Assembly: GCA_021735655.1 (NCBI GenBank)
Contig: JAIPGM010000002.1
Coordinates: 1-64,000 of the forward strand
DNA: 64,000 bases
Direction of reading: 5' to 3'
From: Candidatus Omnitrophota bacterium
GTDB taxonomy: Bacteria > Omnitrophota > Gorgyraeia > Duberdicusellales > 4484-171
The notes under the pieces were generated by a model. That model ran no database searches, was not told the DNA's origin, and saw only the letters and a list, made by a program, of their open reading frames with translations. A program made the position numbers and the translations under genes. Below, piece after piece: positions 32,599 to 37,316 of this stretch. Each line of letters opens with the position of its first letter. Within the stretch, counting starts at the first letter, position 1.

Positions 32599-32958
32599 AT
32601 GATAAATATTTTACTTTATATTTTAATCGGCCTATTCGCGGGCGCGATAAGCGGTTTAATTGGAATAGGAGGGGGAATCATCATTGTTCCCGCCCTTATT
32701 TATCTCTTTAAGTTTTCTCAGCATGCAGCTCAAGGGACAACTTTGGCGATGTTAATACCGCCTATTGGCATACTGGCGGCTTTAGCGTATTATAAGCAGG
32801 GACACGTTAATTTTCCGGTGGCAGGATTTATATGTTTGGGATTTGTTATCGGCGGATTCTTAGGCGCGAAATTCGCGGTAGGATTTCCGGAAGTTGTGTT
32901 AAGAAAAATATTCGGAGCGTGTCTTTTGGGTATAGCGAGTTATATGATTATTAAATAA
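32599..32958 (+). CDS. TauE/SafE (TSUP) family 4-TM half-size membrane protein
   Basis: GAISGLIGIGGGIIIVPALIY motif typical of DUF81/TSUP. Confidence 0.65.
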   Translation: MINILLYILIGLFAGAISGLIGIGGGIIIVPALIYLFKFSQHAAQGTTLAMLIPPIGILAALAYYKQGHVNFPVAGFICLGFVIGGFLGAKFAVGFPEVVLRKIFGACLLGIASYMIIK

Positions 32959-33012
32959 TCGATAGGCGATGGGGTTCGCCGTTAACCGCCTCAACAGGCT
33001 GATAACTCCTAC
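32958..33012 (+). promoter_or_regulatory. Fluoride riboswitch (crcB RNA motif)
   Basis: ataGGCGATGGggTTCGCCgttAACCGCCtcaacaggCTGATAACTCCTAC matches the crcB-motif consensus, directly upstream of the crcB RBS. Confidence 0.85.
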
Positions 33013-33036
33013 TTAAATGAAAGGAGGGATTTGTCT

Positions 33037-33423
33037 ATGTTGAGGCTTTTTTATATTGCTTTTGGTGGCGCCGCTGGCGCTTTATTGCGCTATTGGGCTT
33101 CAGGGCTGGCACATAGAATCGGAGGCAGTAGTTTCCCGTGGGGGACATTGAGCGTTAATCTCATAGGATCTTTTCTTATAGGTTTTTTATGGGGAATGTT
33201 TGAATCCGTTATCGTTTCCCAGAATACGCGAATTCTGATTTTTATTGGATTGCTTGGTTCTTTTACGACATTCTCCACGTTTTCGCTGGAGAGCTTTCAC
33301 CTGATCCGGGACGGTGAATACGGTCTTTTCATAGCAAATATATTATCGAGTTTTGCATTAGGTATATTACTAGTTTTTGCCGGATATTTTTTAAGCCGTT
33401 TTTTATTTAACATAGCGCGCTAA
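33037..33423 (+). CDS. crcB: Fluoride ion channel CrcB/Fluc
   Basis: FGGAAGALLRY ... TLSVNLIGSFLIGF ... LGSFTTFSTFSLE. Confidence 0.85.
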   Translation: MLRLFYIAFGGAAGALLRYWASGLAHRIGGSSFPWGTLSVNLIGSFLIGFLWGMFESVIVSQNTRILIFIGLLGSFTTFSTFSLESFHLIRDGEYGLFIANILSSFALGILLVFAGYFLSRFLFNIAR

Positions 33424-33437
33424 AGGAGGGACTAATC

Positions 33438-33770
33438 ATGAAACTGCCTGAAGAAGGAACATTGTTAAGGATATTCATAGGGGAATCCGACAAGTATAAG
33501 GGCAAGCCGTTATATGAGCAGATCGTTCTTAAAGCCAGAGAACTAAACTTGGCAGGAGCCACAGTTTTACGGGGGCTTATGGGTTTTGGGGCGGACAGCC
33601 ACATGCATTCGGCTAAAATCTTGAGGCTTTCCGAGGATTTGCCGGTGATTATTGAGCTTGTGGATACTGAAGAGAATTTAAACAAGCTCCTGCCTTTTTT
33701 AGATGAAACCGTGCAAGAAGGGCTGATTACGCTTGAAAAGGTTAGAGTCATAAAATACCGTCATAAGTAG
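33438..33770 (+). CDS. DUF190 protein (PII-like, crcB-associated)
   Basis: LLRIFIGESDKYKGKPLYEQIV ... ATVLRGLMGFG. Classic member of the fluoride-riboswitch regulon. Confidence 0.75.
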   Translation: MKLPEEGTLLRIFIGESDKYKGKPLYEQIVLKARELNLAGATVLRGLMGFGADSHMHSAKILRLSEDLPVIIELVDTEENLNKLLPFLDETVQEGLITLEKVRVIKYRHK

Positions 33771-33786
33771 GGAGATAAATTTTAAA

Positions 33787-34269
33787 ATGAAAAAATCTAT
33801 TACAATTAAACCCATAGGCATCATAAATACGCCGTATAAAGAATCCAAGGGTATGCCTATTCAGGGTAAGTTTAAAAGGGGAGTTTTTGGCACTGCCAAA
33901 ATATTTCCTGAATATAAAGCGGGCCTAAAGGATATCAAAGGTTTTTCGCATGTTATCTTGATCTATCATTTTAACCGCTCGAAAGAGGAACGTCTAACAG
34001 GCAAACCGTTTCTAGAAGATACCGAACATGGAATATTTGCAATACGCAGCCCGCACCGGCCAAATCATATAGGTTTCTCGATCGTGAAATTAAAGAGCGT
34101 AAAAGGGAATACCATTACTTTTATGGAAGTCGATATTTTAGACGACACCCCGCTTCTGGACATCAAGCCTTACGTCAAACATTTCGACAGCCGGGATAAA
34201 GTCAAGAACGGTTGGATCGATAAACACTTCAAAACCGGCAAAATCCCAAAGCGCACAAGACTGGAATAA
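33787..34269 (+). CDS. trmO: tRNA m6t6A37 methyltransferase TrmO (TsaA/YaeB family)
   Basis: IKPIGIINTPYKESKGMPIQG ... FSHVILIYHF ... RSPHRPNHIGFSIVKL. Confidence 0.75.
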   Translation: MKKSITIKPIGIINTPYKESKGMPIQGKFKRGVFGTAKIFPEYKAGLKDIKGFSHVILIYHFNRSKEERLTGKPFLEDTEHGIFAIRSPHRPNHIGFSIVKLKSVKGNTITFMEVDILDDTPLLDIKPYVKHFDSRDKVKNGWIDKHFKTGKIPKRTRLE

Positions 34270-34282
34270 TGTTCACTTTTTC

Positions 34283-34310
34283 CTAATGTTCACTAATTAG
34301 TGAACATTAG
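34283..34310 (+). promoter_or_regulatory. Perfect palindrome CTAATGTTCACTAAT|TAGTGAACATTAG, with an extra direct half-site AATGTTCACT at 34268
   Basis: Read directly. Lies between trmO and abiEi. A loop-less palindrome, so more like a protein-binding site than a terminator. Confidence 0.4.
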
Positions 34311-34357
34311 ATAGTTGGTTTTTGGCTTTATAAAATTAAATAACTCGAAGAAATAGC

Positions 34358-34396
34358 TTGACATCCTGTCACAAATAATATATACTTTTTGTGACA
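34358..34396 (+). promoter_or_regulatory. sigma70 promoter (TTGACA-17-TATACT) embedded in the inverted repeat TGTCACAAA-N12-TTTGTGACA. Candidate AbiEi autoregulatory operator.
   Basis: ttgacatcctgtcacaaataatatatactttttgtgaca about 20 nt upstream of the abiEi ATG. Confidence 0.5.
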
Positions 34397-34413
34397 AAAG
34401 CGAGGTATATAAA

Positions 34414-35013
34414 ATGTCGCAAAGCATTGAGAATAAAGTAGTTAGCAGGATTTATGGTAAGAATAGGGGTTGGGTATTCACTCCAAATCACTTTCTTGAC
34501 CTTGGAAGCCGTACAGCCGTGGCTCAAGCCTTGGGGCGGTTGGCAAAAGCCGGTACTATTCGCCGATTGGCACATGGACTATATGATTATCCTGAGAAAC
34601 ACCCTACGCTGGGCGATCTTCCGCCTAACTATGAGCGGATAGCCCAAGCTTTGGCAGGAAGGGATAGTTTAAAAATTCAGCCATCGGGGGCGTATGCCGC
34701 CAATCTGCTCGGGCTTACTGAGCAGGTTCCTGCAAAGATTGTTTTTCTGACTGACGGCCCTAATCGCAAAGTACAAATAAACAAACAGCAGGTTGTCTTA
34801 AAAAGGACAACTCCTAAAAATATGGCCACTGCCATGCGGGTGAGCGGTCTGGTTATCCAGGCTCTGCGTCATTTAGGCCAAGATCATGTGGATGATAAAA
34901 TAATCGGGATGCTTAAGAAAAGATTATCCAGCGATGACAAGCGTCAGCTTATAAACGACCTTCGTTACGCTCCTGTATGGATAGGAAATATATTTCGGCA
35001 ATTACAAGGATAA
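34414..35013 (+). CDS. abiEi: AbiEi-family antitoxin/transcriptional regulator (type IV TA / abortive infection)
   Basis: N-terminal winged-helix AbiEi_4-like region (VFTPNHFLDLGSRTAVAQALGRLAKAGTIRRLAHGLYDY). Confidence 0.7.
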   Translation: MSQSIENKVVSRIYGKNRGWVFTPNHFLDLGSRTAVAQALGRLAKAGTIRRLAHGLYDYPEKHPTLGDLPPNYERIAQALAGRDSLKIQPSGAYAANLLGLTEQVPAKIVFLTDGPNRKVQINKQQVVLKRTTPKNMATAMRVSGLVIQALRHLGQDHVDDKIIGMLKKRLSSDDKRQLINDLRYAPVWIGNIFRQLQG

Positions 35014-35020
35014 GAAGCCT

Positions 35021-36046
35021 GTGGACAAATTCGTATTATTGAGTGATAAAGACAAACGCGCCTATTTCGAAGTAGCCGCGGCTGACTTGAATGTAATGCC
35101 ACAGCTTATTGAAAAGGATTTCTGGGTTTGTTGGATACTCAGGACCCTTTTTTCGTTACCGTCATCAGGCAGTCACTTGACATTTAAGGGCGGTACATCA
35201 CTTTCAAAATGCTATGACGTTATCAGGCGTTTTTCAGAAGATGTCGATATTTCGATAGAAAGGTCTTTTTTATCAAGCCAACAGGCCATTGAACCTAAAA
35301 AACAAGAAAGTAACAAAGAAAACCAGCGAAGACTTGAAAGGTTACAGTTAGCCTGTCAAGCAAAGATCAGCGGCACTCTAATCCCAGAACTGAAAAAAAG
35401 TATTGCCGCTATTCTGACCGATAGAAAAAAATGGAATCTCGAAATCGATTCTAACGACGCATTAAAGCAGACAGTTTTGTTTACTTTCCCACACGCTTTG
35501 ACAAATAGTATGGAAAGCTACGTAAAGGCCGCTGTTAAAATTGAGTTTGGTTCCAGAGCCGACCATTGGCCTGTTGAAAATATGGCTGTTACGCCATATG
35601 TTGCTAATGTTTCAGACGATGTGACTATTGAAGGTGCATCAGTGCGTGTTTTAGCCGCAGAGCGGACCTTTTGGGAGAAAGCGACCATACTTCATATGAT
35701 ATATCATTATCCTGAAGGTAAGAATGTGCCTCCGCGGATGTCGCGGCACTATTATGATTTATTCGCGATGGTAGATTCTTTTGTATACAAGAAATCTTTA
35801 GAAAAAATATCGCTATTGAAACATGTATCCGATCATAAGTCTTTATTTTTTAAAGCTAACTGGGCGCATTATGAAGAGGCTAAACCGGGCAGCTTGCGGC
35901 TGGTGCCGCGCGATGACCAAATAAGCCAGTTGAAAACTGATTACCGACAAATGCAACAAATGTTTTTTGAGGATCCCCCGTCATTTGAGAGTGTTTTAGA
36001 GAAACTAAAAATAGCGGAAGATAAGATTAGCAGGGTCAAACAATGA
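35021..36046 (+). CDS. abiEii: AbiEii/AbiGii-family nucleotidyltransferase toxin (DUF1814)
   Basis: NTase motif FKGGTSLSKCYDVIRRFSEDVDI. 341 aa. Immediately downstream of abiEi. Confidence 0.7.
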   Translation: MDKFVLLSDKDKRAYFEVAAADLNVMPQLIEKDFWVCWILRTLFSLPSSGSHLTFKGGTSLSKCYDVIRRFSEDVDISIERSFLSSQQAIEPKKQESNKENQRRLERLQLACQAKISGTLIPELKKSIAAILTDRKKWNLEIDSNDALKQTVLFTFPHALTNSMESYVKAAVKIEFGSRADHWPVENMAVTPYVANVSDDVTIEGASVRVLAAERTFWEKATILHMIYHYPEGKNVPPRMSRHYYDLFAMVDSFVYKKSLEKISLLKHVSDHKSLFFKANWAHYEEAKPGSLRLVPRDDQISQLKTDYRQMQQMFFEDPPSFESVLEKLKIAEDKISRVKQ

Positions 36047-36167
36047 ATTACTGGTGGACGGCAGATTATCACTTTTCGCACGCCAAAGCTATTATGATAG
36101 CCGATGAACGATCGGGATTTTTATGATATTTTTGCAATAGAATAACGAAAAGTAGCATTTAGTAGAC

Positions 36168-37316
36168 ATGAATAACCCAAAAAACTCAATAAAAAAGGCA
36201 GTCTACATCCGTACCTTCGGATGCCAGATGAATGATCGAGACTCTGAGGCTCTTCTAGGCCTTTTTGTTGATTTGGGGTATTCTGTAGCTAAAGAGCCTA
36301 AGGAGGCCGATGTAATATTAGTTAATACTTGTTCGGTGAGAGAGCATGCTGAAGACCGGGCCCGTTCTTTTTTAGGTAGCCTACAGAAGCTCGCTGAGCG
36401 CCGGCGTTCCCGAGGCGCTAAACATAAGATAATTGGGCTTATTGGTTGTATGGCTCAGAATACTGGAGAAGAAATATTTAAAAGAATGCCCTATGTTGAT
36501 TTAATCTGTGGACCTGGCTGTCTAGATAGAGTCGTTGCTTATATTCAAAAGATAGAGAAAGAAAAAGTTCGGATTCTTGACTTAGAGGATAAGAAACGTA
36601 AAAGTGAATTTTATCAAGGTTCCTATCGTATTGAGAGCGACCATGCCCAAGTTGTGATATCAACCGGCTGTTCTAATTATTGTTCATATTGTGTTGTTCC
36701 TTATGTACGTGGTGAGTTACGCTTGCGCAAACCCAAAGATATCATTGATGAGATAAAGCAGAATATAGCTTTAGGTATTTCGAAAATTACTTTGCTTGGT
36801 CAAAATGTTAATGATTATTTTTTTAATCAGCGGGTTAATTTTGTTGAGTTACTTAATCGAATCGAGGCAATAAATGGATTAACCGAGTTAAATTTCATTA
36901 CTTCGCAACCAAGGAATATTCCTAAAGGTTTATTCGAGCTGATGGCAAAGAGCGATAAAATATCAAAGCATTTGCATTTACCTTTTCAGTCAGGATCAAA
37001 TCGTATTTTAAAGGCGATGAAACGAGGTTATACGATTGATAAGTACTTGCAAATAGTCTCTGATTATAAGAAAATAGTAAAAGGTACCTTGAGTACCGAT
37101 GTCATTGTTGGCTTTCCGACTGAGAGCGATGAAGATTTTGCGCAAACTAAGGAAGTTTTAGAAAAGGTGCGTTTCTCGAGTGCTTATATTTTTAAATATT
37201 CACCACGGAAAAGGGCAAAAAGTGCTAAGTTAATTGATGATCTAGTTCAGAGCGAAAAAGTTAAGAGGCACAAGATATTGCTCGATCTGCAAAGGAAGAT
37301 TTCACGCGATGGTTAA
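36168..37316 (+). CDS. miaB: MiaB-family tRNA methylthiotransferase (radical SAM, lacks an obvious TRAM domain)
   Basis: MTTase N-domain (VYIRTFGCQMN), radical SAM motif CSNYCSYC. Confidence 0.75.
   Translation: MNNPKNSIKKAVYIRTFGCQMNDRDSEALLGLFVDLGYSVAKEPKEADVILVNTCSVREHAEDRARSFLGSLQKLAERRRSRGAKHKIIGLIGCMAQNTGEEIFKRMPYVDLICGPGCLDRVVAYIQKIEKEKVRILDLEDKKRKSEFYQGSYRIESDHAQVVISTGCSNYCSYCVVPYVRGELRLRKPKDIIDEIKQNIALGISKITLLGQNVNDYFFNQRVNFVELLNRIEAINGLTELNFITSQPRNIPKGLFELMAKSDKISKHLHLPFQSGSNRILKAMKRGYTIDKYLQIVSDYKKIVKGTLSTDVIVGFPTESDEDFAQTKEVLEKVRFSSAYIFKYSPRKRAKSAKLIDDLVQSEKVKRHKILLDLQRKISRDG

Follow-up and report, generated by a model that had tools for sequence, protein, structure and literature searches.

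Between the genes trmO and miaB of a Candidatus Omnitrophota contig sits a toxin-antitoxin module of the AbiE type, and two palindromes, here called P1 and P2, stand in the intergenic region before it. The window is the whole 64,000-nucleotide (nt) stretch of that contig that we analysed, and all window-wide counts refer to these 64 kb. An earlier note on this DNA took both palindromes for AbiEi-style operators, and the question that the locus raises is whose operators they are. Our answer, to which we give a probability of roughly 0.75, is that the AbiE operon is intact, that P2 is the site of its own repressor, and that P1 is the borrowed remnant of an operator belonging to another family, AbiEi_2. 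The first half of the older idea survives, since P1 does look like an operator of the AbiEi style; its role as a second operator of the AbiEi encoded in the window is the part that we give up.

An intact AbiE operon

Judged by its sequence, the module is an intact two-gene AbiE operon of the DUF6088 subtype, behind a strong sigma-70-type promoter. The first gene, abiEi (34414..35013, forward strand), has a ribosome-binding site, GAGG, 9 nt before its ATG, and encodes the putative antitoxin and repressor, a DUF6088-family protein of 199 amino acids (aa). The second, abiEii (35021..36046, forward strand), begins with GTG after a gap of 7 nt and encodes the predicted toxin, a DUF1814 nucleotidyltransferase of 341 aa. 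The antitoxin gene comes first, as it does in all mapped relatives and on plasmids. Both open reading frames (ORFs) of the pair described earlier are thus in place, its naming as AbiEi/AbiEii is borne out by the Pfam AbiEii, PADLOC AbiEii, Pfam DUF6088 and PADLOC AbiEi models, and its location among tRNA-modification genes is confirmed: trmO (33787-34269) lies upstream of the region that carries P1 and P2, and miaB lies beyond the operon.

The toxin matches Pfam AbiEii/DUF1814 (PF08843) at 1.2e-37, a full-length domain match of residues 38-327 to model positions 1-237 of 238, and PADLOC AbiEii at 7.4e-102; its deposited name is “nucleotidyl transferase AbiEii/AbiGii toxin family protein”. AbiEii toxins are defined by the motif hG[G/S]-x15-DhD, with a family-specific arginine in motif II (PMC3985639). 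The toxin of the window reads F55-K-G57-G58, then 15 residues, then D74-V-D76, with R70 in addition, and the 15 residues from G58 to D74 are the published AbiEii spacing (PMC3985639). The lack of catalytic GS-x(n)-D-x-D residues, which the earlier note had named as fatal to its proposal, is therefore not observed. Across 35 homologues of 66-89% identity, the residues K56-G57-G58-T-S, R70-F-S72-E-D74, D76, K220 and R242-H-Y-Y-D246 are invariant. The invariant S72, two residues before D74, occupies the position of the phospho-acceptor T65 of S. agalactiae AbiEii. The motif III region, E214-R-T-F-W-E-K220-A-T-I-L-H, is invariant as well; it was compared by motif description with the S. agalactiae protein, in which motif III is a lysine among hydrophobic residues (K173/R180) (PMC3985639). 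The only Protein Data Bank (PDB) chain that matches the toxin by sequence is 6y56, over a motif of 30 residues (FKGGTSL...RFS.D.D).

The antitoxin has DUF6088 as its best Pfam family (3.3e-47) and matches the PADLOC AbiEi model at 3.5e-72. The AbiEi_4 profile of Pfam, which the earlier note expected to find, scores 17.8 bits (E = 0.0036), below its cut-off of 25; NCBIfam yields no match, and sequence and profile searches of the PDB yield nothing meaningful. The same protein, residue for residue, has been deposited as “DUF6088 family protein” from a metagenome-assembled genome of Candidatus Omnitrophota. In an AlphaFold2 model of mean predicted local distance difference test score (pLDDT) 71, helices at residues 5-15, 24-30 and 33-46 precede an alpha/beta domain, the wing region being of low confidence; the antitoxin would then be made of an N-terminal three-helix DNA-binding part, whose third helix (33-46) is the predicted recognition helix, and a C-terminal antitoxicity domain.

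Recent work has reclassified AbiE together with MenAT, and reports that the antitoxin induces auto-phosphorylation of the toxin (bioRxiv 10.64898/2026.01.19.700257). The predicted protein of the window is equipped with the residues needed for this kind of control, called type VII. By analogy with MenT and AbiEii, the toxin would add nucleotides to tRNA 3' ends and so stop translation; from what is known of the family, the antitoxin would keep it inactive, probably by inducing the auto-phosphorylation of S72.

The palindrome at the promoter

The promoter of the operon has the −35 hexamer TTGACA (34358..34363, forward strand), a 17-nt spacer and the −10 hexamer TATACT (34381-34386). It agrees with the consensus at 11 of 12 positions, near-consensus as first described, and the −35 is conserved to at least 90% in the 52 aligned promoters discussed below. 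P2 (34367..34396) is made of the arms TGTCACAAA (34367-34375) and TTTGTGACA (34388-34396), each of 9 nt and 12 nt apart, so that it does bracket the −10 in the way the earlier note had seen. It occurs once in the window, where the expected number of occurrences is 0, and is not found in shuffled sequence.

Loci of antitoxin relatives were fetched in two rounds, 67 first and about 90 more later. The layout is common to all loci of the close clade: 3 nt separate the −35 from a 9-nt arm, the next 12 nt form a centre with a −10 resembling TATA(T/C)ACT, and the complementary arm follows. The 52 distinct promoters align without gaps, and 97.4% of their arm cells are complementary; when the partner columns are slid, as a control, pairing is at most 65%. 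Five of the nine arm positions are invariant, and two variable positions always switch on both sides, from A-T to G-C in 15 sequences and from C-G to G-C in 20. These two-sided changes total 35 cells, and the observed covariation is matched by none of 500 shuffles. More distant relatives keep the layout with different arm sequences.

The arms fall into three classes, CAC, CAG and CGC, with 21, 21 and 16 loci, and three residues of the antitoxin follow them. CAG loci have Asp at residue 37 (21/21), and all others have Ala; CGC loci have Lys at residue 38 (16/16), where 41 of the 42 others have Gln; residue 41 takes Glu, Gly or Val according to the class. All three lie within helix 33-46 of the model, the third of the N-terminal domain; winged-helix AbiEi proteins have their recognition helix at this place (PMC3985639). 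The arm classes being largely clades, the rule was checked on homologues outside the set from which it was derived. In three out of three alphaproteobacterial plasmid homologues, about 45% identical, the arms TCAGAAAA...TTTTCTGA enclose a −10-like centre and the helix reads [I/V]-D-Q: the association of D37 with CAG holds there too.

P2 is very probably the autorepression operator of AbiEi, because it is conserved in the clade, its arms change symmetrically and covary with residues of the helix, and the plasmid homologues obey the same rule. Negative autoregulation, proposed at the outset, gains support from the same comparisons, which suggest that AbiEi would bind both arms of the 9-12-9 site, block RNA polymerase and repress its own operon.

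P2-like palindromes are also met outside this setting. Single or clustered, without a −35 and away from DUF6088 genes, they lie at 3-350 in contig L098, 521-652 in L140, 563-635 in L009, 3785 in L024 and 3826 in L119 (contigs of the related loci are designated by L and a number). In some of these stray copies the arms are hybrid, a CAG arm facing a CAC arm for instance; otherwise the arms are matched within each copy.

The palindrome behind trmO

P1 (34283..34310) is perfect over 28 bp, with arms of 14 nt, 34283-34296 CTAATGTTCACTAA and 34297-34310 TTAGTGAACATTAG, and no spacer: the perfect palindrome of the earlier note is real, and its arms are one base longer than the 13 bp given there. The direct half-site reported beside it was found as well. 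This copy, TAATGTTCACT, 11 nt long (34267..34277, forward strand), shares its first three bases with the stop codon of trmO and lies 17 nt upstream of its counterpart in the palindrome, so that the array has one half-site in direct orientation followed by half-sites 2 and 3, of the GTTCAC type, which form the palindrome. The 26-nt core of P1 occurs once in the window and in 0 of 100 shuffles, even when 3 mismatches are allowed.

If P1 served the AbiEi of the window, one might look for it at the promoters of related operons. We counted it in a set picked by antitoxin homology only, with enough upstream sequence (n = 38), accepting half-sites within 250 nt. P1-type half-sites are present at 17 of these 38 AbiE promoters and absent at 21. 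Where they occur, they lie anywhere from 30 to 72 nt from the −35, and the sequence of P1 is unchanged before promoters of the CAC, CAG and CGC classes.

The converse search starts from the palindrome. An exact-pattern scan of metagenome contigs with the palindrome alone (AATGTYCACTAWWTAGTGRACATT) returned 86 loci, to which viral contigs added one. Among these 87, about 22 have an AbiE pair, and about 31 have a gene of another family, AbiEi_2 (PF09952), of 224-230 aa, followed by a nucleotidyltransferase gene of family NTP_transf_8 (PF12281). In these loci, the array lies between the −10 of the promoter and the ribosome-binding site of the AbiEi_2 gene, and has four half-sites AATGTYCAC, in the order > > < < and with spacings of 17/14/17. 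In each of about 27 cases, arrays of GTCCAC type go with a subfamily of AbiEi_2 proteins of 224 aa (family B), and those of GTTCAC type with one of 229-230 aa (family C, for example the product of 1907-2596 in L091). It is in the helix-turn-helix segment that the proteins of these subfamilies differ.

The half-sites of the window, at 34268, 34285 and 34299, have the right spacing for an array of this type, the operator type of AbiEi_2 family C. The array is incomplete and orphaned here: it has no fourth half-site and no promoter hexamers, and no AbiEi_2 homologue is encoded in the 64 kb. On sequence grounds, P1 is an operator of the AbiEi style, but one of AbiEi_2 family C and foreign to the antitoxin of the window, because it is absent from 21 of 38 promoters, stands at a variable distance, stays constant across the AbiEi classes, and is the promoter operator of AbiEi_2 genes.

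A conserved leader before interchangeable cassettes

How would an operator of one family come to stand before the promoter of another? In three related Omnitrophota contigs, L009 (530-930), L090 (1900-2230, reverse) and L123 (3240-3580), a conserved leader comes after the trmO stop and holds palindromes of ATAGAACA type, a pair of P2-like copies lacking a −35 (one has hybrid arms), an array of GTCCAC type and a three-site array of GTTCAC type. After this leader comes the promoter of a variable cassette, which is AbiE in L009 and an XRE gene in L090; L116 has an AbiEi_2 operon (leader at 2510-2720) at this trmO/miaB site. Elsewhere, behind genes other than trmO, the same pieces stand before Fic genes and AbiE modules, and cassettes commonly end upstream of miaB, including in lineages whose MiaB is only 35-44% identical to that of the window.

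The window, like its closest relatives L155-L158, L018 and L141, has lost by deletion the leader up to the GTTCAC array, so that the trmO stop runs straight into the first half-site of that array. P1 would then be the last piece of a conserved leader that stands before interchangeable cassettes (AbiE, Fic, XRE, AbiEi_2 with its nucleotidyltransferase), and would represent three quarters of a four-half-site operator of AbiEi_2 family C.

What remains of these arrays is not uniform. In arrays anchored on the palindrome, the extra half-site is found at a fixed offset of 17-18 nt in 18 of 21, with a pairwise identity of 0.91, versus 0.44 for the spacer of the same arrays, and the leader arrays have kept their half-sites while their promoter hexamers decayed. 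The half-sites look to be under constraint rather than decaying freely, and this leaves room for a role of P1 in trans; whether P1 is by now inert seems to us an even bet.

Two variants may be mentioned here. A hybrid palindrome, GTTCAC/GTGGAC, occurs at 1044-1067 of L154 (L074 / L154, an IMG/VR contig of 39,243 bp classed as viral), and at 4250-4310 of L159, a complete genome of 1.99 Mb, an AT-rich repeat pair (aaatactaattagta... / ...gctaaattagtattt) replaces P1 before the AbiE promoter.

Weighing the alternatives

Several observations weigh against the reading given above, with its intact operon, P2 as the site of AbiEi and P1 as a borrowed remnant. The toxin departs from the published motifs: motif III is without an arginine 7 residues past the lysine, and motif IV is R242-H243-Y-Y-D246, that is R-H-x-x-D where +DxxD was published, His replacing the first acidic residue. 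The structural models help little, that of the toxin (pLDDT 57) being too poor for use and that of the antitoxin, of moderate quality, having no fold match in the PDB at E <= 0.001. The correlation between residues and arms is confounded by phylogeny. Finally, the half-sites of P1 and P2 share a TGT(T)CAC core, and weak cross-binding of P1 by the AbiEi of the window is conceivable.

The best of the alternatives concerns the present state of P1. P1 may be bound in trans by a family C regulator of AbiEi_2 whose gene lies elsewhere in the genome, and which would insulate or co-regulate the AbiE cassette, as part of a network of toxin cassettes. The conservation of half-sites relative to spacers and flanks, which extends to L052, L053 and L118, where antitoxin identity is only about 60%, speaks for it, and so does the survival of half-sites in leader arrays that lost their promoter hexamers. 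A precedent exists: S. suis AbiEi is reported to repress SezAT also (PMC11062541; cited in bioRxiv 10.64898/2026.01.19.700257). On the other side, the window encodes no AbiEi_2 homologue and keeps only 3 of the 4 half-sites, and an AbiEi_2 gene lies within 4-5 kb at only 2 of about 60 AbiE loci; the sole complete genome in which both systems occur is uninformative, its AbiE promoter having no P1 array. We regard a live P1 as possible, though we would not favour it.

Much less credit goes to the idea that both palindromes are operators of the AbiEi of the window, P1 acting as an auxiliary upstream site as in the four-repeat promoter of M. tuberculosis Rv2827c. It has real attractions: Rv2827c does use two pairs of inverted repeats (PMC7319586), the core mentioned above is common to both palindromes, their centres are 85 bp apart, roughly eight helical turns, and arrays of P1 type stand at 17 of the 38 promoters. 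The same survey turns against it, with P1 missing from the other 21 promoters of the same family and moving between 30 and 72 nt from the −35. P1 also stays GTTCAC while the arms of P2 and the recognition helix switch among three classes, and an identical array is the promoter operator of another protein family, with a covariation of its own. We consider it improbable.

To an equally small degree we credit P1 as a recombination or mobility site, either an element like the repetitive extragenic palindromes (REP, or REPIN) or a cassette boundary, at which a Y1 transposase (IS200/RAYT-like) or another recombinase would swap the cassettes next to miaB. Differing cassettes do occupy the same trmO/miaB site, and Y1_Tnp genes directly adjoin the leader arrays in L112 (6240-6899), L109 (69-671), L144 (2105-2785)/L152 and L079 (185-599); one more gene of this type lies by the leader at 2103-2792 of L159. 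Copies of P2 with hybrid arms and hybrid P1 palindromes exist, and L021 is without exactly one arm of the palindrome. Yet REPs come as many dispersed copies with a RAYT gene, and the window has a single array and no Y1 homologue in its 64 kb. The arrays do not flank the cassettes on both sides: a second copy of P1 on the right side of the cassette was sought across loci, and none was consistent. No recombinase or flanking second site is consistently present across loci either, the left and right spacers of four-site arrays do not pair with each other, which precludes an extended hairpin, and the covariation between array variant and AbiEi_2 subfamily is left unexplained.

That P1 is the transcription terminator of trmO is the least credible proposal: a 12-bp RNA hairpin just past the stop codon (centroid −15.6 kcal/mol, z = −2.3) and a T5 run 14 nt downstream of the stem invite it, but the hairpin is AT-rich and not called by the terminator scan, the T run is too distant, the sequence after the palindrome varies among loci, often without a T run, and the same palindrome lies inside the 5' leaders of AbiEi_2 genes.

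Other candidates were dropped. A LexA box or an integron attC site, judged against the consensus sequences, seems to misfit in spacing and core; a dif/lox-like site misfits in arm orientation and has no adjacent recombinase. A weak promoter-like element that overlaps the end of P1, TAGATA-17-TAAAAT (34308-34336), is not conserved across loci on visual comparison.

Relation to known systems

The AbiE system of S. agalactiae resembles the locus of the window in being bicistronic with the antitoxin first, and in its DUF1814 toxin with hG[G/S]-x15-DhD, the motif II arginine and a Ser/Thr two residues before the first Asp. Its antitoxin represses by binding inverted repeats in its own promoter (PMC3985639; bioRxiv 10.64898/2026.01.19.700257), as that of the window is predicted to do. 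The differences are as clear. The antitoxin of the window belongs to DUF6088, with a sub-threshold match to AbiEi_4; its predicted operator is a single repeat with 9-bp arms and a 12-nt centre that holds the −10, whereas S. agalactiae has two 23-bp repeats 3 bp apart; and the toxin differs in the R-H-x-x-D of motif IV and in an additional helical segment of about 30 residues, inserted at roughly 98-131 in the poor model (pLDDT 57).

The M. tuberculosis pair Rv2827c-Rv2826c, of MenA4/MenT4 type, resembles the toxin of the window through the 6y56 motif match. The Rv2827c promoter has more than one set of repeats (PMC7319586), like the two palindromes here; there, however, four similar repeats bind one protein, and in the window two different motifs have different cognate families.

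The gene pair of the window, AbiEii/DUF6088, is also annotated on 529 plasmids of PLSDB, mostly conjugative, and found in marine metagenomes; in a survey of 2025 it figures as a “novel combination” (PMC12654330). The promoters of the plasmid pairs have the same TCAGAAAA...TTTTCTGA architecture. Compared with these pairs, to which it is 44-47% identical, the copy of the window is chromosomal, has arms of the CAC class, and carries the extra P1 array. The modules of AbiEi_2 (PF09952) and NTP_transf_8 (PF12281), themselves uncharacterised, share with the window the P1 half-site AATGTYCAC and the 17/14/17 spacing, and differ by what the window is without: such genes, the fourth half-site and the promoter hexamers.

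A linked phosphoesterase

We now turn to the relatives nearest to the window, and to the gene that may follow the toxin. In L155-L158, the closest, the antitoxin is 97% identical, and the region of trmO, P1 and P2 differs by one base in 181 aligned, in the tail of trmO. The toxin gene has 86% DNA identity and carries a frameshift that splits it into ORFs of 108 aa and 248 aa in the four contigs (for example at 2099-3113 of L156). An MNT/HEPN pair comes after the split toxin in L156, the sole contig that reaches far enough.

In 15 of 44 relatives, a gene for a metallophosphoesterase of 191 aa starts on the stop codon of the toxin gene, and remnants of it are present in 5 more; examples are L018 (from 2041), L141, L096 (5527-6102) and L094 (3135-3824). 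The window keeps a stub of this third gene, MPE191, at 36043..36126 on the forward strand: about 13 codons are homologous, and the likeness to the closest relative stops near 36080. The metallophosphoesterase also follows Fic, and AbiEi_2 operons carry a different phosphoesterase, of 229 aa. Because AbiEii is reported to be silenced by reversible phosphorylation, the enzyme could be a dedicated phosphatase that re-activates the phosphorylated toxin.

What the locus may teach

The module itself adds little, AbiEii/DUF6088 pairs being already annotated in databases and listed in the survey, and its own interest is low. What it offers is a testable recognition rule for an uncharacterised family of antitoxins, relating residues 37, 38 and 41 to positions 5 and 6 of the operator arm: the rule predicts that AbiEi A37D would prefer TGTCAGAAA arms, and Q38K (with G41E) TGTCGCAAA arms. 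It also offers a caution for operator prediction from sequence only, namely that a conspicuous perfect palindrome by a toxin-antitoxin promoter can belong to another regulator.

The orphan operator leader and the link to a phosphoesterase are modest leads. If they are functional, orphan arrays before unrelated cassettes, together with a linked phosphoesterase, would point to cross-regulation between toxin-antitoxin systems and to built-in reactivation of toxins. More speculatively, a promoter-less leader of orphan sites of AbiEi and AbiEi_2 type, present beside miaB in many lineages and bound in trans by antitoxin-repressors encoded elsewhere, might tie separate toxin and defence cassettes into one network by coupling their expression or exchange, a conjecture that we find appealing and rather doubtful.

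Neighbouring features

Between the operon and miaB, a consensus scan, the only method applied, marks a terminator-like hairpin followed by a T run (36101..36115, forward strand). The MiaB ORF (36168-37316) scores above the NCBIfam MiaB cut-off, yet spans only positions 2-370 of the 437 of the model, and its end is overlapped by 8 nt by the next ORF. The MiaB of the window thus seems to be without its C-terminal part, which we take to be the TRAM domain. On the other side, trmO is directly preceded by crcB (33031-33423) and a DUF190 gene (33438-33770), with a fluoride riboswitch (Rfam RF01734, 62.7 bits) at 32956-33018, upstream of crcB.

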